Source: Phycisphaera mikurensis NBRC 102666
GTDB taxonomy: Bacteria > Planctomycetota > Phycisphaerae > Phycisphaerales > Phycisphaeraceae
Length of the DNA: 32,000 nt
Assembly (NCBI RefSeq): GCF_000284115.1
Contig: NC_017080.1
Span: 3,000,001-3,032,000 of the forward strand
Reading direction: 5' to 3'
Below, piece by piece: positions 1 to 30,564 of the stretch. Every line of letters starts with the position of its first letter. Positions within the stretch are counted from its first letter, which is position 1. The translations under genes were made by a program, and so were the position numbers. The notes beneath the pieces are model-generated. The model saw only the letters and a program-made list of their open reading frames with translations. It searched no databases and was not told the DNA's origin.

Positions 1-633
1 CAGCTCATGTGCGAGCTGGCGAAGCAGCACAAGATGGTGCTGGTCGTGCCGATCTACGAGGAGGAGCTGCCCGGCGTCTACTACAACACCGCCGCGGTGA
101 TCGACGCCGACGGGACCTACCTGGGCAAGTTCCGCAAGATCCACATCCCCCACTGCCAGCCGGGCTTCTTCGAGAAGTTCTACTTCCGGCCGGGGAACCT
201 GGGCTACCCGGTGTTCGACACCGCGGTGGGCAAGGTGGGCGTCTACATCTGCTACGACCGCCACTTCCCCGACGGCGCCCGCTGCCTGGGGCTCAACGGG
301 GCGGAGATCGTCTTCAACCCCAGCGCCACGGTCGCGGGCCTCTCCGAGTACCTGTGGAAGCTGGAGCAGCCGGCCCACGCGGTGGCGAACCAGTACTTCG
401 TCGGCGCGATCAACCGCCCCGGCAACGAGGCCCCGTGGAACATCGGCGAGTTCTACGGCCAGAGCTACTTCTGCGACCCGCGGGGTCAGTTCATCGCCCA
501 GACCGAGGAGCGAACCGCCGACGCCATCGTCATCGCCGACATGGACCTGGACCTCATCCGCGAGGTCCGCAACACCTGGCAGTTCTTCCGCGACCGGAGG
601 CCGGAGACGTACGGCGCGTTGGTTGCGCCTTGA
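1..633 (+). CDS. Beta-ureidopropionase / N-carbamoyl-beta-alanine amidohydrolase-type carbon-nitrogen hydrolase; 5' end lies outside the window
   Basis: The reading frame runs open from base 1 and stops with TGA at 631-633. The translation carries nitrilase-superfamily motifs: RKIHIP (catalytic Lys region) and VYICYDRHFPD (catalytic Cys). GC3 is strongly biased. Neighbouring pyrimidine-catabolism genes support the call. Confidence 0.85.
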   Translation, partial: QLMCELAKQHKMVLVVPIYEEELPGVYYNTAAVIDADGTYLGKFRKIHIPHCQPGFFEKFYFRPGNLGYPVFDTAVGKVGVYICYDRHFPDGARCLGLNGAEIVFNPSATVAGLSEYLWKLEQPAHAVANQYFVGAINRPGNEAPWNIGEFYGQSYFCDPRGQFIAQTEERTADAIVIADMDLDLIREVRNTWQFFRDRRPETYGALVAP

Positions 634-644
634 AGGTTGTGCGC

Positions 645-901
645 GCAGCGCTTCGCTTGAACACAGAGGACGCAGAGGCACAGAGAGGAAGGCGAGCATG
701 CCCTGCCTCCCCGCTTCGCCGGCCGATCGCAAAACCGCGGATCGTCGAGGAAAAGCCTTGAAAACGATCAGGATCCGCGGCTCCTCGCTCTCTGTGCCTC
801 CTCGGTGGCCTCCTCGGAAGGAAGGCTGCTTCCGCCTCGAGGCGCAGCCATTCGGTCGCCACGGCGACCGCCTCCGTGACCTCTGTGATGGAGCGAAGCG
901 A
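645..901. repeat. CACAGAG-rich long inverted-repeat element, copy A (degenerate, right arm split)
   Basis: The left terminus is GCAGCGCTTCGCTTGAACACAGAGGACGCAGAGGCACAGAGAGG. The right terminus is CCTCCGTGACCTCTGTGATGGAGCGAAGCGA, its imperfect reverse complement. An extra internal half-arm, CTCTCTGTGCCTCCTCGGTGGCCTCC, lies at about 789-814. The element fills the gap between the stop at 633 and the start at 923. Confidence 0.8.
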
Positions 902-922
902 CTGCTCGTCCACGGCTGACTC

Positions 923-2332
923 ATGACCACCCCCCGCACGATCCGCTACGGCCTCGACGACGTTCCTCCACCGGGAAGAACCGGGGTGTTCGCGCTGCAG
1001 CACGTGCTGACGATGTTCGGGTCGACGGTGGCGGTGCCGCTGCTGCTGGCCGGGCCGCTGGGGCTGGACACGGCGGGGACGGCTCTGCTCATCAGCAGCG
1101 TCATGCTCTGCTCGGGCGTGGCGACGCTGCTGCAGTCGACGTTCGGGTCGCGCCTGCCGCTGATCCAGGGCGTGAGCTTCTCGCACCTGGGGCCGTTCCT
1201 GGCGATCATCGCCGGCGTCGCGGCCACCGGCGACGCCTCGCCCGGCGCCGCGATGCCGTGGATCGCCGGGGCGATCATCGGCGGGGCGCTGGTGGAGATG
1301 GGCATCGGCTTCAGCGGGCTGATGGGCCAGGTCCGCAAGGTGCTCTCCCCGGTGGTCGTCGGTCCGGTCATCACGCTGATCGGCCTGGCGCTCTACCAGG
1401 CCGGCGCCCCCGTCGCGTCGCAGGACTGGCCGATCGCCGTGCTGACGATCGCGCTGATCGTGCTCTTCGCTTTCGTGCTCGCGCGGAAGACGCACCCGGC
1501 GGCGAGCCTCTTCGCGATGTTCCCGATGCTGCTGGCGATCCTCACCGCCGTGGCGGTGTGCGCGCTGCTGACCCTCGCCGGCGTCTACGGCTCGGATCAT
1601 CCCGCCCGGCCCGACCTCTCGGCCTTCCGCGAAGCGGATTGGGTGCGGACCACGACGCTGGTGCTGCCCTGGGGCGTGCCTCAGTTCTCGCTGGGCTTCT
1701 TCGTGGCGATCCTGGCCGGTTACCTCGGCTCGATGATCGAGAGCTTCGGCGACTACCACGCGGTGAAGCAGGCCAGCGGCGCCGGCAACCCGACGCCCAG
1801 GGAGATCAGCCGCGGCATCGGGTTCGAGGGCGTTGGCTGCGCGATCACGGGCCTGCTCGGCGGCTTCTCGTCCACGAGCTACAGCGAGAACGTCGGGCTG
1901 GTCGGGCTCACGGGCGTCGCCAGCCGGCGGGTCGTGCAGGTGGCGGCGGTGATCCTGGTCCTGCTGGGCGTCTTCGGCAAGTTCGGCGCCCTCGCCGCCG
2001 CGATCCCCGGCCCGGTCGTGGGCGGCCTGTACTGCGCCATGTTCGGCCTGATCGCCGCCGTGGGCATCCGCCAGTTCGCCCGCTGCGACCTCTCCAGCGA
2101 CCGCAACCTGTTCATCGGCGGCTTCGCGCTGTTCATGGGTTTGAGCGTGCCGTACTACTTCGCCAACGGCGGCAGCGACGCCGTCACTACCGCCCTGCCC
2201 GCGTGGGCCGCCGGCCTCGTCAACGCCCTGGGCTCCACCGGCATGGCCGTCGGCGCCATCCTCGGCTTGTTGCTCGACAACCTCGTCCCCGGAACGGACC
2301 GCGAGCGTGGTTTGGTGGAGGAAGCGTCGTGA
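923..2332 (+). CDS. NCS2/NAT-family nucleobase (uracil/xanthine-type) permease
   Basis: 469 aa polytopic membrane protein. It has a NAT-signature-like segment, SYSENVGLVGLTGVASRR, and an N-terminus (ALQHVLTMFGSTVAVPLL) typical of xanthine/uracil permeases. It is embedded in the pyrimidine catabolism operon. Confidence 0.85.
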   Translation: MTTPRTIRYGLDDVPPPGRTGVFALQHVLTMFGSTVAVPLLLAGPLGLDTAGTALLISSVMLCSGVATLLQSTFGSRLPLIQGVSFSHLGPFLAIIAGVAATGDASPGAAMPWIAGAIIGGALVEMGIGFSGLMGQVRKVLSPVVVGPVITLIGLALYQAGAPVASQDWPIAVLTIALIVLFAFVLARKTHPAASLFAMFPMLLAILTAVAVCALLTLAGVYGSDHPARPDLSAFREADWVRTTTLVLPWGVPQFSLGFFVAILAGYLGSMIESFGDYHAVKQASGAGNPTPREISRGIGFEGVGCAITGLLGGFSSTSYSENVGLVGLTGVASRRVVQVAAVILVLLGVFGKFGALAAAIPGPVVGGLYCAMFGLIAAVGIRQFARCDLSSDRNLFIGGFALFMGLSVPYYFANGGSDAVTTALPAWAAGLVNALGSTGMAVGAILGLLLDNLVPGTDRERGLVEEAS

Positions 2333-2368
2333 GGAGGAAAAGAACTTCGTGGTTCGATTCCCTCACGC

Positions 2369-2557
2369 GCAGCGCTGCGCTGGAACACAGAGAGCACGGA
2401 GGCACAGAGGCCACAGAGAGAGGCACAGAGGGAGGAAGACGAAAGCGGTGCTTCCCCAACTTGTCTTCGTGCCTCCACAAACGCTCTTCCCCTTTCTTCT
2501 CTGTGCCTTCCTCTGTGGCCTCTGTGCCTCTGAGTCCTCTGTGATTGAGCGAAGCGA
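2369..2557. repeat. CACAGAG-rich long inverted-repeat element, copy B
   Basis: The left arm is GCAGCGCTGCGCTGGAACACAGAGAGCACGGAGGCACAGAGGCCACAGAGAGAGGCACAGAGGG. The right arm is CTTCTCTGTGCCTTCCTCTGTGGCCTCTGTGCCTCTGAGTCCTCTGTGATTGAGCGAAGCGA. The two are imperfect reverse complements, and the core of about 65 bp is unrelated to the cores of copies A and C. Confidence 0.85.
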
Positions 2558-2575
2558 ACGCCCCGACGCAGCCCC

Positions 2576-4000
2576 ATGCCCCCCACCACCGCCCCCCAAG
2601 CAGAACGGACGATCGAGCTTCCGCAGTTCGATCACCAGCCCCGGCCCTACGACGGGCCGAGCCGGGAGGAGGTGCTGGCTTTGCGGCAGCGGTACGTGAA
2701 CCCCGGGGTGCTCACGTACTACCGCGAGCCGCTGATGATCGTCGAGGGGGCGATGCAGTACCTCTACGACGAGACCGGCAAGCGGTACCTCGACGCCTTC
2801 GCGGGCATCGTCACCGTGAGCGTCGGCCACTGCCACCCGCACGTTGCCGCCGCGGTGAAGGAGCAGGCCGGCACGCTGCAGCACGCCACGACGATCTACC
2901 TGCACCCGACGCTGCCGAGGTTCGCGGAGAAGCTGGCTTCGAAGATGCCGACCGGCCCGAACGGCACGCCGCTGGACAGGACCTACTTCACCAACTCCGG
3001 CAGCGAAGCCAACGAGCTCGCCGTGCTCATGGCCCGCGAGGCGACCGGGAACCAGCACGTGATCGGCCTCCGCAACGGCTACCACGGCGGCACGCCCAAC
3101 ACGATGGGCCTCACCGCCCACGGCACCTGGAAGTTCCCCAGCAACGCCCCCGGCGGCATCGCCCACACGCACCCGGGCTACTGCTACCGCTGCCCGTACG
3201 ACCTTGCGTACCCGTCCTGCGAGATGAAGTGCGCCAAGGACGTCGCCAACGTCATCGCCTACGAGACGCCCGGCCAGGTCGCCTGCTTCATCGGCGAGCC
3301 GATCCAGGGCGTGGGCGGCGCGGTGCTGCCGCCGAAGGAGTTCTTCGGCATCGTCTACGACGCGGTGCGGGCCGCCGGCGGGCTGTGCGTCGCCGACGAG
3401 GTGCAGGGCGGCTTCGGCCGCACCGGCGAGCACTACTGGAGCCACCAGCACTTCGGCGTGCAGCCCGACCTGGTCGTGATGGCCAAGGGCATCGGCAACG
3501 GCGCCCCGCTGGCGGCGGTGACGACCACCGAGGCCACCGCCGCGACGATGACCAAGCGGATCCACTTCAACACCTACGGCGGCAACCCGGTGTCGATGGC
3601 CTCGGGCCTGGCGACGCTGGAGGTCATCGACGCCGAGGGCATCCAGGAGAACGCCCGCGTCGTCGGCGGTCGCCTGAAGGAGGGCCTGCTGGAACTCCGG
3701 GACAAGCACGACCTCATCGGCGACGTCCGCGGCCTGGGGCTCATGCTCGGCGTGGAGCTGGTGACCGACCGCGTCGCGAAGACGCCCGCCAAGCAGGAGG
3801 CCGCCGACCTCATGGAGCTCGCCAAGGAGCGCGGCCTGATCCTGGGCAAGGGCGGCCTGCACGGCAACACGATGCGCATCAAGCCGCCCATGTGCATCTC
3901 CAAAGACGACGCCGACTTCCTCCTCGCCACCGTCGACGAGTGCCTCGGGATCATCGAGGAGAAGGCCCGCCACGGCTCTTCCTGGAAGGCGGGGGCGTGA
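2576..4000 (+). CDS. Class-III PLP aminotransferase (beta-alanine/3-aminoisobutyrate:pyruvate, AGXT2-like)
   Basis: 474 aa. Motifs seen are FTNSGSEANE, VADEVQGGFGRTG and VVMAKGIGNG (PLP-lysine region). The operon context fits conversion of beta-alanine produced by ureidopropionase. Confidence 0.85.
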   Translation: MPPTTAPQAERTIELPQFDHQPRPYDGPSREEVLALRQRYVNPGVLTYYREPLMIVEGAMQYLYDETGKRYLDAFAGIVTVSVGHCHPHVAAAVKEQAGTLQHATTIYLHPTLPRFAEKLASKMPTGPNGTPLDRTYFTNSGSEANELAVLMAREATGNQHVIGLRNGYHGGTPNTMGLTAHGTWKFPSNAPGGIAHTHPGYCYRCPYDLAYPSCEMKCAKDVANVIAYETPGQVACFIGEPIQGVGGAVLPPKEFFGIVYDAVRAAGGLCVADEVQGGFGRTGEHYWSHQHFGVQPDLVVMAKGIGNGAPLAAVTTTEATAATMTKRIHFNTYGGNPVSMASGLATLEVIDAEGIQENARVVGGRLKEGLLELRDKHDLIGDVRGLGLMLGVELVTDRVAKTPAKQEAADLMELAKERGLILGKGGLHGNTMRIKPPMCISKDDADFLLATVDECLGIIEEKARHGSSWKAGA

Positions 4001-4021
4001 TGCGCATTGAGAGTCGTACGA

Positions 4022-4230
4022 GCAGCGCTTCGCTTGGACACAGAGGACGCGGAGGCACAGAGGCCACAGAGAGAGGCACAGAGCGACGGAGAAACAATTA
4101 CTCCGAGCAGCGGGCAGGCTGTCGATGGATCCAGACAGCACGCCAAGCGGTCTGAAGACGCGGCATCCTGCCTCTGTGCCTCTCTCTGTGACCTCTGTGC
4201 CTCTGTGCTCTCTGTGATGGAGCGAAGCGA
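4022..4230. repeat. CACAGAG-rich long inverted-repeat element, copy C (best preserved)
   Basis: The left arm at 4022-4085 is GCAGCGCTTCGCTTGGACACAGAGGACGCGGAGGCACAGAGGCCACAGAGAGAGGCACAGAGCG. The right arm at 4170-4230 is CCTCTGTGCCTCTCTCTGTGACCTCTGTGCCTCTGTGCTCTCTGTGATGGAGCGAAGCGA. The arms are largely complementary and the core of about 85 bp is unique. Confidence 0.85.
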
Positions 4231-4278
4231 CCGCCCGCAGAAAGAACGAGCTACCGGCCCCGCACCCCAAGAACGATC

Positions 4279-5463
4279 ATGCCAACCCTCGAAACCACCG
4301 TCGACGGGATCACGTTCCCGAATCCGTTCCTGATCGGCTCCGGCCCGCCGGGAACGAACCAGAAGGTCATCAAGAAGGCGTTCCAGGAGGGCTGGGGCGG
4401 CGTCATCGCCAAGACGGTCTCGCTGGACGCGAGCAAGGTGACCAACGTCGCGCCGCGCTACGGGAAGCTCACGGGGGAAAACAAGAAGGAGGTCTTCGGC
4501 TGGGAGAACATCGAGCTGATCGCGACCACCAGCTTCGAGGACTGGCTCGACGACTTCCGCGCCTGCAAGGACGCGTACCCGGACCGCCCGCTGATCGCCT
4601 CGATCATGGAGGAGCATTCCCGCGACGCGTGGGCCGAGGTCGTCGGCCGCTGCGAGGAGGCGGGTGTCGACGGCTTCGAGCTGAACTTCTCGTGCCCGCA
4701 CGGCCTGCCCGAACGCAAGATGGGCGCGGCCATGGGCGAGAACCCCGACCTCGTCGAGGAGGTCACCGGCTGGGTGATGGCCGCCGCGAGCACGCCGGTC
4801 TGGGCGAAGATGACGCCCAACGTCACGCGCATCGAAGACCCCTCGCGGGCCGCCCTGTCCGCGGGTGCCCACGGCGTCTCGGTCATCAACACGATCCGCA
4901 GCATCATCGGCGTGGACCTGAAGTCGCTGCGGCCGATGCCCACCGTCGAGGGCCACACCACGCCGGGCGGCTACTCCTCGGTCGCCGTGAAGCCGATCGC
5001 GCTGCGCATGGTGATGGAGTGCCGCCGGCTGATCGACGCGGATTTCGGCGGCCGCTCGATCTCGGGCATCGGCGGCATCGAGACCGGCCACGACGCGGCG
5101 GAGTTCATCCTCCTGGGGGCGGACACCGTGCAGGTGTGCACCGGCGTCATGAAGAAGGGGTACCGCATGATCGGCCCGATGCTCGAGGAGCTGCTGGGCT
5201 TCATGGATCAGCACGGCTTCGAGACGCTCGACGACTTCAAGGGCCACGCCGTCCCCTACGTGACCACGCACGCCGAGCTGGTGCGCCTCCAGGCCGAGGC
5301 GCAGGACCGCAAGCGGGCGCGGGTCGCCGAGGAGATGGCGCTCAAGGAGAAGGCGAAGGCGCAGGAAGAGCTGATCGCCGCCGGCAAGGAAGCCGTCGTC
5401 CGCGACGAGAACTGGGACGAAGACGCTTTCGTGGAGCAGAGCGACGAGCTGGCGGGGGGTTGA
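4279..5463 (+). CDS. Dihydropyrimidine dehydrogenase catalytic (PreA-like, DHOD-family FMN TIM-barrel) subunit with a charged C-terminal tail in place of the ferredoxin domain
   Basis: 394 aa. Motifs seen are FPNPFLIGSGPPGT, NFSCPHG (active-site Cys loop) and GIGGIETGHDAAEFILLGADTVQVCTG. The last 70 aa or so are Lys/Glu/Ala-rich and contain no CxxCxxCxxxCP motif. Confidence 0.8.
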   Translation: MPTLETTVDGITFPNPFLIGSGPPGTNQKVIKKAFQEGWGGVIAKTVSLDASKVTNVAPRYGKLTGENKKEVFGWENIELIATTSFEDWLDDFRACKDAYPDRPLIASIMEEHSRDAWAEVVGRCEEAGVDGFELNFSCPHGLPERKMGAAMGENPDLVEEVTGWVMAAASTPVWAKMTPNVTRIEDPSRAALSAGAHGVSVINTIRSIIGVDLKSLRPMPTVEGHTTPGGYSSVAVKPIALRMVMECRRLIDADFGGRSISGIGGIETGHDAAEFILLGADTVQVCTGVMKKGYRMIGPMLEELLGFMDQHGFETLDDFKGHAVPYVTTHAELVRLQAEAQDRKRARVAEEMALKEKAKAQEELIAAGKEAVVRDENWDEDAFVEQSDELAGG

Positions 5464-5564: not shown

Positions 5565-5648
5565 GACCCGGAAAAGGTGACAGCCACCGATTCCGCCGTT
5601 AGACCCGGAAAAGGCGGGAAAGGTGACAGCCACCGATTCCGCCGTTAG
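5565..5648 (+). repeat. REP array upstream of the RAYT gene (2 direct copies)
   Basis: AAAGGTGACAGCCACCGATTCCGCCGTTAG occurs identically at 5573-5602 and 5619-5648. The core GGTGACAGCCACC is a small stem-loop (GGTG/CACC). The second copy ends 9 nt before the RAYT ATG. Confidence 0.85.
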
Positions 5649-5657
5649 CGTCACTTC

Positions 5658-6344
5658 ATGAGCAGACCACGCCGGCTGACCGTCGGGAACCTCGTGTACC
5701 ACGTGATCCACCGAGGCAACGGGCGCATGACGATCTTCGAGGACGAGGAGGACATGGACGCCTTCGAGCGTGTGCTCGAAGAGGCGCTGGCGCTGCATCC
5801 ATCCATGCGGATGATCGCCCACTGCGTGATGCCGAATCACTGGCACCTGGTGCTCTACCCCAGCGAATCGAAGGTCCTCTCGAAGTTCGTCGCGTGGGTG
5901 GCATCAACGCACACGCGACGTTGGCACGCGCACCGGCACCAAACTGGCGAGGGCCACCTGTACCAAGGCCGCTTCCGCTCTTTTCTGGTGCAGAAGGGTC
6001 CCCCGGTGGCCAAGGTCTGCCGCTACGTCGAGCGGAACGCGATGCGGGCGGGGTTGGTGGAGCGTGCGGAGGATTGGCGGCACGGCAGCCTCTGGCGATG
6101 GTCCCGAGGCGCCGCCAAGCAGAAGGAGCTTCTGGCGGCCTGGCCGGATCCCCCCGGGCGCCGTCCCGCGGGCTGGCTGGACCTGGTGAACCAGCCGCAG
6201 TCGGACGCGGAGGAGGAGGCCATCCGGGTGTGTCTGCGTCGTGAGCGTCCGTATGGCGACGCGGAGTGGATGGAGACCGTGATCCCGCAGTTCGGCTTGG
6301 TGTCGACGCTTCGGCCCCAAGGACGGCCCCGGAAGGAGGGGTAA
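5658..6344 (+). CDS. REP-associated tyrosine transposase (RAYT; IS200/IS605-like Y1 HUH transposase family)
   Basis: 228 aa. The HUH motif is MPNHWHLVLYP (cac tgg cac at 5838-5846). The C-terminal catalytic Tyr motif is CRYVERNAMRAGLV, resembling the YxxxNPxRAGLV pattern of RAYTs. Inverted REP arrays flank the gene. Confidence 0.85.
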   Translation: MSRPRRLTVGNLVYHVIHRGNGRMTIFEDEEDMDAFERVLEEALALHPSMRMIAHCVMPNHWHLVLYPSESKVLSKFVAWVASTHTRRWHAHRHQTGEGHLYQGRFRSFLVQKGPPVAKVCRYVERNAMRAGLVERAEDWRHGSLWRWSRGAAKQKELLAAWPDPPGRRPAGWLDLVNQPQSDAEEEAIRVCLRRERPYGDAEWMETVIPQFGLVSTLRPQGRPRKEG

Positions 6345-6442
6345 TCGGTGGCTGTAACCTTTTCTTGATCCTTTCCTCGGCCTAATCGGTGGCTGTCACC
6401 TTTTCTTGGTCGGCCTAATCGGTGGCTGTCACCTTTTCTTGG
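6342..6442 (-). repeat. REP array downstream of the RAYT gene (3 copies, inverted relative to the upstream array)
   Basis: TAATCGGTGGCTGT(A/C)ACCTTTTCTTG occurs at 6342-6367, 6383-6409 and 6416-6442. The last two copies sit in a 33-bp tandem unit. The first copy contains the RAYT stop codon TAA (6342-6344). Confidence 0.85.
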
Positions 6443-27022: not shown

Positions 27023-28663
27023 ATGGCCGAAACCACCTCCACCGCGATCGACGCCCGGGCCGAGCAGGCCGCCCCCGTCGGCCCTCCGCCCAAGAGCTCC
27101 ACACGCCGCGAGCTCGCCACCGGCTTGAGCTTCCTGGCGCCCAACATCCTCGGCGTCCTGGTCTTCGTGATCTTCCCGGTCGTGTTCAGCCTCGGGATGG
27201 CGTTCACCAACTGGGACCTCACGCAACAGAACATGTTCAAGCCCGAGGCGAGCGTCGAGTTCACCGGGCTGGACAACCTCATCGAGCTCACCACCGAAAA
27301 CCGCGTCGGCGACGTCAACGCCGACGGCCAGACCGTCGGCCTCTGGGAAGCGATCAGCTCCTCCCGCTTCCTCCGCTTCTTCGGGAACACGCTCTTTTTC
27401 ATGATGGGCATCCCGCTGGCCGTCGGCGGTTCGCTGATCGCCGCGATCCTGCTCAGCCAGGACACCCGCGCCGGCGGCGGCCGCAACCACGCCTGGCTCA
27501 TCGGCGGGGGCGTGCTCCTTTCCTCGTGCGTCCTGCTCGCGGCGCTGGGCATCGGAGCCTCCGCGATGGTGCTGCTGGTCGTGGGCACCGGCTGCGGCAT
27601 CCTGCTCATGGGCCTCGCCGGCGGCCTCACCTTCTACCGCACGGTCTTCTACACGCCCCACTTCGTCACGGGCGTGGCCACCTTCGTGCTCTGGAAGAAC
27701 CTGTACTCCAAGCAGACCGGTCCGATCAACAACACGCTGCAGCCGATCCTCGACGGCGTCTCCGGAATGGTGGCGGCGGTGCCGCCGGGTGTCGCACGCA
27801 GCCTGCACTTCCTCGGCTACGCGCTCCTGCTTGGCCTGTTCTGGAAGCTGCTCGCGATCCTGCGGAGGATGCACCGCGACGGCGACCTGGGGCGCATCGC
27901 CACCGCCCTCTCGGTGGCGCTGCTGTGCCTGCCCTTCCTCGCGGCCGGTCTCTGGTACGCGACGGCCCCCACCGCGTGGATCCTGCTCGCCGCGGCGGGC
28001 ACGATTGCCATCGCTCAGACGGCGATGGCCCTCCGCGGCGGCGACCGCTTCCCCTCCACCGCGATGGAGGGTCTCGGATCGGGCCTGGTGCTCTCCATCT
28101 TCGCGATGGTCGGCATGTTCATCCTGCTGGGCCTTTCCGCGGTCGCCTGGTACCTGCCCGGCCTGGTCGAGGGCGAAGTCGTCGACGGCGTCGTGGTCGA
28201 TGCGCCCGGGCTGGAGGCGCCCAGCTGGCTCAACGGCTACCACTACGCCAAGCCCGCCCTCATGTTCATGGGCATCTGGGGCGCCATCGGCAGCAACAAC
28301 ATGCTGCTCTACCTCGCCGGCCTCTCCAACGTGCCCGGCGAGCTGTACGAGGCCGCCGACATCGACGGCGCCACGCCGCTGTCCCGCTTCTGGAACGTGA
28401 CGTGGCCGCAGCTCGCGCCCACCACCTTCTTCATCTTCGTGATGAGCACGATCGGCGGACTCCAGGGCGGCTTCGAGGCGGCCCGGGTCATGACCCAGGG
28501 CGGCCCCGCCGGCTCGACGACCACGCTGTCGTACTTCATCTACCAGGAGGGCTTCGAGACCGGGCGGCTGGGCTTCGCCTCCGCGGTGGCTTGGGTGCTC
28601 TTCCTGCTCATCTTCGCCGTGACGCTCTTCAACTGGAAGTTCGGGAACAAGTATGTCGATTGA
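27023..28663 (+). CDS. Carbohydrate ABC transporter permease (MalF/UgpA-like), about twice the usual length with extra TM segments
   Basis: 546 aa. The N-terminal motif is LSFLAPNILGVLVFVIFPVVFSLGMAFTNWDL. The EAA loop is LYEAADIDGATPLSRFWNVTWPQL. The region at roughly residues 150-370 forms additional hydrophobic helices. Confidence 0.85.
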   Translation: MAETTSTAIDARAEQAAPVGPPPKSSTRRELATGLSFLAPNILGVLVFVIFPVVFSLGMAFTNWDLTQQNMFKPEASVEFTGLDNLIELTTENRVGDVNADGQTVGLWEAISSSRFLRFFGNTLFFMMGIPLAVGGSLIAAILLSQDTRAGGGRNHAWLIGGGVLLSSCVLLAALGIGASAMVLLVVGTGCGILLMGLAGGLTFYRTVFYTPHFVTGVATFVLWKNLYSKQTGPINNTLQPILDGVSGMVAAVPPGVARSLHFLGYALLLGLFWKLLAILRRMHRDGDLGRIATALSVALLCLPFLAAGLWYATAPTAWILLAAAGTIAIAQTAMALRGGDRFPSTAMEGLGSGLVLSIFAMVGMFILLGLSAVAWYLPGLVEGEVVDGVVVDAPGLEAPSWLNGYHYAKPALMFMGIWGAIGSNNMLLYLAGLSNVPGELYEAADIDGATPLSRFWNVTWPQLAPTTFFIFVMSTIGGLQGGFEAARVMTQGGPAGSTTTLSYFIYQEGFETGRLGFASAVAWVLFLLIFAVTLFNWKFGNKYVD

Positions 28664-30296
28664 TTCCGACCCCCGCGACCCCCGCGACCGCCCGGTCGGG
28701 GATCAGCGACACGATCCCGCGGCCCCGGCCCAGGAGGCGGTGCCGCAGGTCGGCCGGCTGGCGACGACCCACACGGTCACCGGCGCAGCCGCCCCCCAGG
28801 CGCCCGCGCCCATCGCGGAGGTGCCGGGCTCCCGACCCACGCCGTCGAACCAGCCGCGGGCCGCCGAGCGGGCGCGGGCGCTGGCGAAGGCCGCGTCGCT
28901 GCACATCGTGCTGACGGCGCTGGGCCTGATCCTCTTCCTTCCCTTCCTCTACATGTTCCTGACGTCGGTGAAGGACCTCAGCCAGGTCGGGCTGCGATCC
29001 TGGATCCCCTCCACCGTGGTCACCACCGACGCGGGACAGTTCGGGGAGGAGCGACTGGCGGCGCTCCACGGCGTCATCCAGGAGCCCGCGGCGCCGGCCG
29101 AGCACTGGCTCTCGGCTCGCTTCGGCGAGCTGATCGAGCCGACGCCCGCGGAGGCTTCCACCGTGCTCAACCGGCTGATCAACGACGGTGCCGATGCGCT
29201 GGCGCTGCCCGCCGAGGACGTCGCCGCGGCCGCATCCGCATCGGCGGCGGCCGAGCCTCCGGCGGACCCCGCGAGCGGAACCGACGCCGAGCGGATCACG
29301 CTCGACGGCATCCCAGGCCCTTTCGATGCCGCGGATCTCCGGCTCCCGGAAGCCGGGTTCGCCGCCGACACGCCCGGAGCCCGCGCCTCGGCGGAGGCGG
29401 AAGCGGCGCTCCAGCGGGCGGAGGCCGCCGTCGCCGCCCACACCGCCTTCGAGAACGGCCTCGCCCTCGCCCCCGAAGGCGAGCGGGCCGCGGCCCGCTC
29501 CGAGGGCCTGGAGCTGCGAGCCGCCGCCGCCGAGGCCGCGCAGACGCTGCGGAGCGCGTGGACCCGCGTCCGGGGCCACCAGCTCGCCGCCGCCCTGCCG
29601 GCGGTGGTGCCCGAGCCCACCGCCTTCCGCTGGCACAACTACCTGCAGGTGTTCCGCGACATCCCCTTCGGCCGCTTCTACATGAACTCGCTGTTCGTGG
29701 CCGCTTGGGTCACCTTCCTCCAGCTGTTCACCAGCTCGATGGCCGCCTTCAGCTTCAGCCGCCTCAGGTGGAAGGGCCGCGACCAGGTCTTCCTTCTCTA
29801 TCTCGCGACGATGATGCTGCCGGGCCTGGTGTTGATGATCCCCAACTACCAGATCATGATCTCGCTGAGGCTCGTTGACACGCTGGTGGGCCTCATCCTG
29901 CCCGCCGCCTTCACCGCCTTTGGCACCTTCCTGCTGCGGCAGTTCATGATGGGCATCCCGGCGAGCCTTGACGAGGCCGCCGAGATCGACGGCGCCAGCA
30001 AGTGGCGGGTCTACTGGGACGTCATCCTCCCGCTGGCCCGCCCCGGCCTGGTGACGCTGGCCATCTTCACCTTCATGGGCACCTACAACAGCTTCTTCTG
30101 GCCGTTGGTGATGCTCAAGAGCGAGCACCGCTACACGCTGCCGATCGGCATCCTCGCCTTCGACACCAGCGCCGGCCAGCAGACGAATCTGATGATGGCC
30201 GCCATCACCATGACGATCGTCCCGATGATCATCGTCTTCGTGCTGCTCCAGAAGCAGCTGGTCAAGGGGATCCAGCTCGGCGCCGTGAAGGGCTGA
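28653..30296 (+). CDS. Carbohydrate ABC transporter permease (MalG/UgpE-like) with an Ala-rich insertion of about 230 aa after TM1
   Basis: 547 aa. Its ATG overlaps the upstream stop (ATGTCGATTGA), suggesting translational coupling. The EAA loop is LDEAAEIDGASKWRVYWDVILPLARPG. The conserved tail is YTLPIGILAF...IVPMIIVFVLLQKQLVKG. Confidence 0.85.
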   Translation: MSIDSDPRDPRDRPVGDQRHDPAAPAQEAVPQVGRLATTHTVTGAAAPQAPAPIAEVPGSRPTPSNQPRAAERARALAKAASLHIVLTALGLILFLPFLYMFLTSVKDLSQVGLRSWIPSTVVTTDAGQFGEERLAALHGVIQEPAAPAEHWLSARFGELIEPTPAEASTVLNRLINDGADALALPAEDVAAAASASAAAEPPADPASGTDAERITLDGIPGPFDAADLRLPEAGFAADTPGARASAEAEAALQRAEAAVAAHTAFENGLALAPEGERAAARSEGLELRAAAAEAAQTLRSAWTRVRGHQLAAALPAVVPEPTAFRWHNYLQVFRDIPFGRFYMNSLFVAAWVTFLQLFTSSMAAFSFSRLRWKGRDQVFLLYLATMMLPGLVLMIPNYQIMISLRLVDTLVGLILPAAFTAFGTFLLRQFMMGIPASLDEAAEIDGASKWRVYWDVILPLARPGLVTLAIFTFMGTYNSFFWPLVMLKSEHRYTLPIGILAFDTSAGQQTNLMMAAITMTIVPMIIVFVLLQKQLVKGIQLGAVKG

Positions 30297-30315: not shown

Positions 30316-30564
30316 CGGGTGCCACGCCGCCCGCGGGGTGGCGAGCGCGGGAGATGGTCGCGACGCGGCCACCCCCCAAGGGGCGTGGCACCCGGAGACC
30401 CCGATCAAGCGGACATCTCGGGTGCCACGCCGCTTGCGGGGTGGGGAGCGCGGGAGGTCGTTGCGGCGCGGCCACCCCCCGAGGGGCGTGGCACCCAGAG
30501 ACTCCAACCAAGCGGAGATCTCGGGTGCCACGCCGCTTGCGGGGTGGTGGTCGCCGCAGGCGAC
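30316..30564. repeat. Tandem 103-bp hairpin-forming repeat (2 full units plus a partial third)
   Basis: CGGGTGCCACGCC recurs at 30316, 30419 and 30522. Each full unit holds GGTGCCACGCCGC(C/T)(C/T)GCGGGGTGG and its imperfect complement CCACCCCCC(A/G)AGGGGCGTGGCACC, 27 nt apart. For example, 30421-30444 pairs with 30472-30495. The array ends in the palindrome GTCGCCGCAGGCGAC (30550-30564). Confidence 0.85.

Follow-up and report, generated by a model that had tools for sequence, protein, structure and literature searches.

Heptamer-array hairpin elements between the cistrons of a Phycisphaera mikurensis operon and their relation to GxxExxY genes

What are the long inverted repeats that fill every gap of a four-gene operon in Phycisphaera mikurensis NBRC 102666, and how did they come to lie there? 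The window, that is, the whole 32-kb stretch of DNA analyzed here (contig JACHEL010000002.1 of GCA_014207395.1), begins with four co-directional genes at positions 1-5463, which encode a CN_hydrolase, a xanthine/uracil permease, a class-III aminotransferase and a DHO_dh-like protein, and each of the three intercistronic gaps of this operon is filled by one hairpin element. Together with flanks of 7.4 kb upstream and ~8.6 kb downstream, the source-genome DNA examined amounted to 48 kb; all three elements found within it occupy this operon's three gaps, an arrangement with an estimated random probability of ~0.004 (three copies, ~40 gaps). The elements are the empty form, lacking an open reading frame (ORF), of what is termed here the heptamer-array hairpin cassette of GxxExxY genes, a class defined operationally in this analysis.

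Anatomy of the three window elements

The elements and their parts are as follows.

645-902, + strand: element 1, 258 bp, gap between the CN_hydrolase and permease genes; left arm 645-692, core 693-782, inner right-arm segment 783-800, 69-nt interruption 801-869, outer right arm 870-902
2369-2558, + strand: element 2, 190 bp, gap between the permease and aminotransferase genes; left arm 2369-2430, core 2431-2498, right arm 2499-2558
4022-4231, + strand: element 3, 210 bp, gap between the aminotransferase and DHO_dh-like genes; left arm 4022-4083, core 4084-4171, right arm 4172-4231

A preliminary description of this DNA had proposed one element with shared termini in each of the three spacers, and exact matching bears this out. 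The left terminal consensus has exactly three matches (645, 2369 and 4022) and the right terminal consensus likewise has exactly three (881-901, 2537-2557 and 4210-4230), all on the + strand, with none expected by chance in either case. Every exact CACAGAG/CTCTGTG heptamer of the 32-kb window lies inside the three elements (21/21; 3.4 expected by chance), and a profile search for arms recovered exactly six of them in the window and none in the ~16 kb of flanking contig. In the cassette, each arm starts with a mini-palindrome, CGCTTCGCT (AGCG-CTT-CGCT), and then has three to five C(A/G)C(A/G)GAG heptamers spaced 8-9 nt apart; no part of the arm other than its 11-nt AGCGCTTCGCT terminus is palindromic in itself. 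The outer termini of the window elements read CGCT(T/G)CGCT, and their arms carry at least two C(A/G)C(A/G)GAG heptamers at 8-9-nt spacing.

The arms of elements 2 and 3 are 58 nt long and 83-84% complementary, in agreement with the earlier view that they are imperfect reverse complements, and each carries four to five heptamers spaced 9, 8, 9 and 12 nt, with the opposite arm mirrored. The dimensions first proposed, arms of ~60 bp with about four heptamers each, hold for these two elements and fail for element 1, in which the outer arms are just 31 nt (649-679 and 870-900), an inner pairing of 18 nt joins 675-692 with 783-800, each arm has two to three heptamers, and the 69-nt stretch at 801-869 splits the right arm. 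Element 1 is a degraded or composite copy. Its core contains a small nested CCGCGGATC...GATCCGCGG hairpin at ~735-780.

Overall, the window elements span 190-258 bp, have arms of 31-58 nt and encode no protein family. Their cores measure 68-90 nt (182 nt for element 1 by arm-profile boundaries) and have no detected similarity to one another, as had been described, and tblastn at E-values up to 10 found no GxxExxY similarity in the window, cores included. As RNA, all three copies proved stable when folded, as the preliminary description had anticipated, with energies of -136, -115 and -142 kcal/mol and z-scores of -5.2, -9.5 and -13 for elements 1, 2 and 3, respectively. For annotation, it matters that small spurious ORFs arise from heptamer arrays, which may also mislead scans for repeats and microRNA-like sequences.

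GxxExxY cargo and dispersal of the family

The connection with GxxExxY genes came from full-size copies. In five of these (loci L023, L089, L092, L121 and L122) the core is ~400 nt long and holds one single ORF of ~125 amino acids, which starts a few bases past an AGGAAGG-like inner arm end and encodes a GxxExxY protein (TIGR04256, 1.7e-35; PF13366 PDDEXK_3, 1e-36) of the PD-(D/E)XK type. Residues E30, D69, E79 and K81 are invariant across 40 aligned homologs. The predicted structure (predicted local distance difference test score, pLDDT, 94.9) is nearest to the cores of Cas4, lambda exonuclease and MGME1, with a template-modeling (TM) score of ~0.5, and among defense-system libraries a weak similarity to the Cas4 core was returned by PADLOC (E ~4e-4). 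A role for GxxExxY as an Hjc-like cruciform resolvase was considered and is unsupported, given these nearest folds. The GxxExxY/PDDEXK_3 family comprises at least 6070 clusters at E<=1e-10, and the function of PF13366 is listed as "Unknown" (PMC3424549).

Seven GxxExxY genes picked without reference to arms were inspected for flanking repeats.

Bernardetia (Bacteroidota): CACAGAG arms on both sides
Algisphaera agarilytica (Planctomycetota): CACGGAG arms on both sides
Dehalococcoidia metagenome-assembled genome, MAG (Chloroflexota): CGCAGAG arms on both sides
Anaerolineae MAG (Chloroflexota): CACGGAG/CACAGAG arms on both sides
Sphingomonas (Pseudomonadota): CGCGAAG, upstream only
Gemmatirosa (Gemmatimonadota): CGCGGAT hairpin adjacent, downstream
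Treponema (Spirochaetota): 10-nt inverted repeat CACGGATTCG

A Saccharicrinis GxxExxY gene has the same arms on both sides; this locus was chosen by the pattern scan and hence is not an independent pick. The GxxExxY ORF was oriented as the upstream host gene in 11/11 cases with readable context, which fits a cassette living on read-through transcription. Several GxxExxY cassettes lie in fatty-acid synthesis operons (L127, L254 and L257), namely between fabD and fabG in Sphingomonas, after fabF-acpP in the Dehalococcoidia MAG, and between fabF and the RNase III gene rnc in the Anaerolineae MAG. The finding of GxxExxY genes wrapped in heptamer-array hairpins, together with empty hairpins in operons, provides a concrete hypothesis for a large and uncharacterized protein family.

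Copies outside the operon, as envisaged in the preliminary description, are numerous. A terminal-pattern scan of one genome per species (185,579 species, 596 Gb) returned at least 120 loci, against ~100 chance matches expected overall by our own arithmetic. Among the matches listed, 45 loci belong to Planctomycetota MAGs, mostly of Phycisphaerae, often with several per genome and with both arms present, and an arm profile delimited ~30 paired elements (both arms) in these loci, most with cores of 5-150 nt. The related MAG g3_MAG_00007 has at least 15 loci; in P. mikurensis, the 48 kb examined contain three copies. The family consensus reads aAGGCAgCGCTTCGCTttACCACAGAGgcCACAGAGnnCACAGAGnnCACAGAGcAAGGCA, then the core, then the mirror image, and neighboring heptamers are spaced 8 or 9 nt apart in 332/365 instances with all loci pooled. 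Crude gene calls place nearly all of the elements in intergenic DNA, typically just past a stop codon and in most cases within ~60 nt of the preceding gene, so that the suggestion that copies might always be intergenic stands for nearly all of them and not as an absolute. In the 31 elements with both neighbors called, again crudely, the flanking genes were co-directional in 19, convergent in 11 and divergent in one. The comparisons show that the window elements are members of a dispersed hairpin family and not an operon-specific device.

No target-site duplication was apparent, in that direct repeats (k=3-5, offsets of 0-14 nt, 32 elements) were not more frequent than in shuffled pairings, and a scan found neither a sigma-70-type promoter nor an intrinsic terminator at the elements. 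A blastn search of element 3 against plasmids and phages gave no match, for which low-complexity masking is possibly responsible. In an E-value search of Rfam with 500-4500, all 11 matches were to plant microRNA-type hairpins and fell below the gathering score, the best being the plant MIR1437 hairpin at 54.6 versus 168 bits. No description of heptamer-array hairpins or of a link between them and GxxExxY was found in the literature by a search that was incomplete, so that an earlier description is possible. The initial impression that this is not a recognized named family is thus upheld by Rfam and by the literature found.

The heptamer arrays extend beyond these loci. The triple heptamer CACAGAGnnCACAGAGnnCACAGAG (21 fixed bases; <1 chance match expected) occurs in >120 IMG/VR contigs with guanine-plus-cytosine (GC) contents of 0.27-0.70, typically in the form ttcacCACAGAGnn(x3)-loop-mirror-gtgaa and sometimes nested inside or around sister-heptamer hairpins. 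Mutual nesting was also observed at L136 1405-1582, L168 1774-1900, L201 2134-2301, L231 701-756 and window 735-780, where hairpins armed with CACAGAG or CACGGAG enclose, or sit within, hairpins of sister heptamers (CGCAGATGAA, CACGAAG and CGCAAAG). A 168-bp hairpin of the same layout, with an GCGCTGCGCTTAAA terminus and CAC(A/G)(A/G)AG heptamers in both arms, is present in the archaeon Methanocella sp. MCL-LM (L067 3194-3361). In a Phycisphaera MAG (L083 4313-5577), an IS3-family insertion sequence (IS) with orfA of 89 and orfB of 297 amino acids lies inside a CACAGAG element. Across the family, then, cores are variable cargo or fast-turnover sequence, ranging from loops of 5-150 nt and nested sister hairpins to a GxxExxY ORF and an IS3 insertion.

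Insertion history and arm evolution in orthologous operons

The genes that flank the elements are listed below.

7-633, + strand: CN_hydrolase (beta-ureidopropionase-type) gene, 3' portion; first cistron of the operon, truncated at the edge of the window; full gene L001 7186-8058
923-2332, + strand: xanthine/uracil permease family gene (Xan_ur_permease)
2576-4000, + strand: class-III aminotransferase gene (Aminotran_3; BAM04678.1 / WP_014437891.1, Phycisphaera mikurensis)
4279-5463, + strand: DHO_dh-like (dihydropyrimidine dehydrogenase-type) gene; final cistron, followed by a RAYT-like gene

In relatives, a dihydropyrimidinase gene comes after the same four-gene set, and these gene families together therefore mark a reductive pyrimidine-catabolism operon, which confirms the earlier assignment. 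The orthologous operon was compared in four further genomes.

L125 (MAG): aminotransferase 79% identical in protein sequence; genes abut, with gaps of 6, 1 and 3 nt
L252: coding DNA 88-90% identical; each of the three gaps holds an element
L123: aminotransferase 89% identical in protein sequence; elements only in gaps 2 and 3
L124 (MAG, GCA_039033855.1): aminotransferase 81% identical in protein sequence; gaps 1 and 2 hold sister-family hairpins of 162-168 nt, gap 3 is 5 nt

The comparison shows that the three window elements are secondary insertions in a formerly compact operon of the P. mikurensis lineage, and that sister genomes have kept elements at the corresponding gaps. Terminus signatures specific to a gap are common to orthologs, for example GTGATTGAGCG in gap 2 of the window and of L252, and the copies were therefore inherited. 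In L124, a more distant relative, the sister-family hairpins (4087-4254 and 5839-6000), whose arms consist of 9-nt units of the form nnCnGGATG, represent an independent colonization of the same gene junctions; the operon was compact ancestrally and has undergone colonization more than once. The insertions turned junctions of 1-12 nt, which were probably translationally coupled, into structured spacers of 240-290 nt, and with this replacement the expression of the four cistrons is likely to have become uncoupled. In L123 (1-170), the DNA upstream of the CN_hydrolase gene has been rearranged in association with the elements: the right end of another element is followed there by a second copy of the initial ~60 nt of the DHO_dh-like gene. 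The L123 contig itself begins with a (GGAGA)n run.

Between orthologs, the heptamer word varies by lineage and both arms of an element use the same word, which is CACAGAG in the window, GACAAAG in gap 2 of L252, GNCAGAG in gap 2 of L123 and CACGGAG in gap 3 of L123. Covariation was assessed in seven aligned arm pairs from three genomes against 500 shuffles, with slid registers as controls. In this alignment, 85.9% of cells are paired (74.6% in shuffles), double-sided changes occur in 25/45 pairs (14.3 in shuffles), and the covariation score is 0.398 (0.194 in shuffles; at most 0.19 in slid registers); none of the 500 shuffles reached any of the three observed values. Covariation was absent among paralogs within genomes and was seen only among diverged orthologs. 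Arm pairing has been maintained, by selection or by homogenization within the element (concerted or compensatory change), while cores have been replaced.

Orthologous arms are 0.67-0.81 identical, near the level of third codon positions (0.70-0.78), and the similarity among orthologous cores does not exceed that of shuffled sequence, which means that turnover of the hairpin tip is complete. The preliminary description had argued that conserved arms with unrelated cores exclude a miniature inverted-repeat transposable element (MITE), an argument that does not survive the finding of variable cores even between orthologs, with arms 67-81% identical. Palindrome centers are unstable, being subject to SbcCD cleavage and center deletions. 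We infer that core turnover reflects such DNA-level instability of palindrome centers in hairpin-extruding DNA.

Related systems and competing explanations

Intervening sequences (IVSs) of 23S rRNA occur in Salmonella, Leptospira and Coxiella. The Coxiella 23S IVS, a selfish element that RNase III excises, has a terminal stem of 28 bp and a variable number of tandem GACAGAT heptamers before a small decaying ORF (PMC4990558). Its architecture is the nearest one: both it and the window elements are selfish insertions in a highly transcribed unit and have terminal inverted repeats that pair into a long stem, heptamers beside the stem, and an optional small loop ORF prone to decay or loss. The window elements differ in lying between protein-coding cistrons rather than within a helix of an rRNA (500-4500 gave no rRNA match), in the spacing of their heptamers (8-9 nt, versus a 7-nt tandem in the IVS), in having arms twice as long, and in the ORF of their loaded relatives, which is GxxExxY (PF13366) and not the S23p four-helix bundle, with no sequence homology between them. 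Correia elements (CREE/NEMIS) are not known outside Neisseria; their inverted repeats measure 26 bp, their ends can form promoters, and they carry an IHF site and duplicate a TA target. In mRNA, RNase III binds or cleaves the hairpin of a Correia element, and the hairpin alters the expression of neighboring genes (PMC2649163; PMC10969869). Among elements in mRNAs, Correia elements are the nearest functional analog: both are inverted-repeat elements of 100-200 bp in intergenic or intercistronic positions, and Correia elements are co-transcribed with genes, as the window copies presumably are. Unlike Correia elements, the window elements have heptamer-array arms, other termini, no target duplication, no promoter and a cross-phylum range.

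The explanation that we favor, with moderate confidence, is that the three elements represent the non-autonomous, MITE-like form, devoid of an ORF, of a palindromic selfish cassette, full-size relatives of which enclose a GxxExxY gene, and that they are processed and spread in the following manner. Because neither promoter nor terminator was found at the elements, they are expected to be transcribed as part of the operon mRNA, and each transcribed element would fold into an imperfect duplex of ~55-60 bp. By analogy with 23S rRNA IVSs and Correia elements, the stem may serve as an RNase III-type substrate, and RNase III processing of the operon mRNA at the elements is plausible. Cleavage would divide the polycistronic mRNA into segments that differ in stability, and the translational coupling of the ancestral operon would disappear; the earlier proposal of an RNase III site, stabilizer or insulator is reasonable on the same analogy. 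Spread would most likely occur via hairpin or cruciform DNA, with an element-encoded GxxExxY nuclease acting in trans, and the quick turnover of the hairpin tip would follow from palindrome-centre instability at the DNA level.

A number of observations weigh against this explanation. To our knowledge, GxxExxY is no known transposase, and no transposase activity is known for the family. The GxxExxY model resembles the Cas4 and lambda-exonuclease cores weakly (TM ~0.5), no GxxExxY gene or remnant is present in the 48 kb of P. mikurensis or in the element cores, and the heptamer arrays in IMG/VR contigs are not beside GxxExxY genes. The rRNA IVSs would be assigned to the same family on architecture and a single paper, and share no sequence homology with the elements. 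Among paralogs in one genome, the two arms of an element resemble each other no more closely (0.786) than they resemble the arms of other elements (0.810), so that their palindromy reflects a shared consensus, and the variable columns of paralogs match at 0.442 versus 0.401 in shuffles (p ~0.09); the covariation among orthologs could come from repeat homogenization rather than from selection. In addition, folding is alike on the + and - strands (-130/-135, -112/-110 and -140/-130 kcal/mol), and the excess of G-U cells (23) over A-C cells (16) on the sense strand is not significant (p=0.34). With no strand asymmetry and no G-U bias, a role at the RNA level is therefore indistinguishable from a purely DNA-level palindrome.

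A broader version of the selfish-cassette explanation is tentative and, taken as a whole, rather doubtful. The window elements would be empty copies of a mobile cassette, undescribed to date and spread across phyla, whose sole gene is the GxxExxY nuclease, which would insert without target duplication into hairpin tips or between cistrons, live on host read-through, and be excised from RNA at its stem; rRNA IVSs would form one branch of it, and its insertion contexts would include fab operons, catabolic operons and phage genomes. On this version, the rRNA IVSs, a puzzle of 30 years' standing, would belong to a larger family that is open to study in ordinary operons.

Several other explanations address the same observations. 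It seems unlikely that the hairpins are today a host-selected (exapted) operon device, in which processing or stability elements or translational insulators set the ratio of the four proteins and a selfish origin is irrelevant. Such a device would account for the retention of elements at the same gaps in three genomes with third codon positions ~0.70-0.78 identical, the preservation of arm pairing via double-sided changes, the presence of a sister hairpin family in gaps 1 and 2 of the L124 operon, and the common orientation of all three window copies. It sits poorly with the same family at dozens of unrelated intergenic sites, with an L125 operon that works with abutting genes, with the lack of folding strand asymmetry and of G-U bias, and with wholly unconserved cores. 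A different proposal takes the arrays to be iteron-like binding sites in double-stranded DNA, at 8-9-bp spacing, for a host or element protein, with palindromy as a by-product of inverted arrays. The drift of the heptamer between orthologs (CACAGAG, GACAAAG, GNCAGAG and CACGGAG) while arm pairing was kept points to pairing, not to a fixed recognition word, and the ORF-less copies have no linked candidate for a binding protein; we consider such sites quite improbable, even with CRCRGAG conserved across phyla at GC contents from 0.27 to 0.73, a strict spacing (332/365 at 8 or 9 nt) and spacer dinucleotides that do not covary among paralogs. The ends of the elements resemble the RYYYAAC/GTTRRRY motifs of integron attC sites, a candidate that was rejected because the ORF of loaded copies is inside the hairpin and not between hairpins, the gene order of the operon is ancestral, and no integrase was called in the 48 kb.

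Two further proposals turn on known classes of small mobile element. Repetitive extragenic palindromic (REP) units were reportedly described by Nunvar in 2010 and by Bertels and Rainey in 2011 as 20-40 nt long, with a conserved tetranucleotide and with a cognate RAYT flanked by the same REP. A REPIN consists of two REP units in inverted orientation. The window elements share with REP units, REPINs and bacterial interspersed mosaic elements (BIMEs) the character of extragenic palindromes downstream of genes, hairpin formation, inverted doublets, lack of target duplication and an adjacent RAYT-like gene. Their arms are ~60 nt of reiterated heptamers, much longer than REP units of 20-40 nt, as the preliminary description had correctly noted for classical REP/BIME units. 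That they are REPIN-like elements mobilized on single-stranded hairpin DNA by the neighboring gene, which begins 195 bp downstream of the operon, could draw on the mini-palindrome AGCG-CTT-CGCT at each terminus and on the lack of target-site duplication, as in Y1 transposition. This gene is, however, flanked by a different repeat of its own, GGTGACAGCCACCGATT, and not by CACAGAG arms, and that repeat occurs nowhere else in the DNA examined; no homolog of the gene was found in any element-bearing locus, L252 has all three elements and no such gene beside the operon, and the NF047646 score is 64 bits against a cutoff of 80. Mobilization by this gene was accordingly rejected, and the REPIN-like explanation as a whole is very improbable.

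5658-6344: RAYT-like gene (Y1_Tnp, 8e-14), 228 amino acids, BAM04680.1; flanked by GGTGACAGCCACCGATT within 5576-6433

Two direct copies of GGTGACAGCCACCGATT stand upstream of the RAYT-like gene (5576 and 5622) and three inverted copies downstream (6343, 6384 and 6417), two of which score as terminator-like hairpins (GGTGGCTGTCACC then TTTTCTTGG). The gene occupies the place that the operon's dihydropyrimidinase gene has in L124 and L125.

Another explanation, to which we give very little credence, makes the elements a classical MITE whose source would be a DDE insertion sequence ending in the same inverted repeats. Like MITEs such as ERIC, RUP, BOX and Nezha, the elements are short, non-coding and intergenic members of a multicopy family, with long terminal inverted repeats and larger relatives that have the same ends. 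They depart from MITEs in the absence of target-site duplication (counts not above shuffles for k=3-5), in arms that are arrays of a 7-nt word, in nesting within each other's loops, and in a larger relative that encodes a PD-(D/E)XK-family protein and no recognized transposase. No transposase is bounded by these arms, and an IS with matching ends, a possibility raised in the preliminary description, did not emerge: the sole IS seen, the IS3-family element in L083, has its own 29-nt inverted repeats (TGAGG...CCTCA). A MITE review from 2024 makes no mention of heptamers, Planctomycetes or Bacteroidetes.

The window elements are members of neither the 23S IVSs nor the Correia elements, they do not match a REPIN/RAYT system, and they differ from classical MITEs in having no target duplication and no recognized transposase partner; the heptamer-array hairpin cassette is widespread and, it appears, unnamed. 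The window also contains a BIME-like array at 30317-30547, between an ABC permease gene (28653-30296) and a minus-strand GntR-family gene. It is composed of five palindromic units of 26-28 nt (GGGTGCCACGCCGCyyGCGGGGTGG) in alternating orientation with spacers of ~25 nt, and it belongs to a repeat family distinct from the CACAGAG elements.

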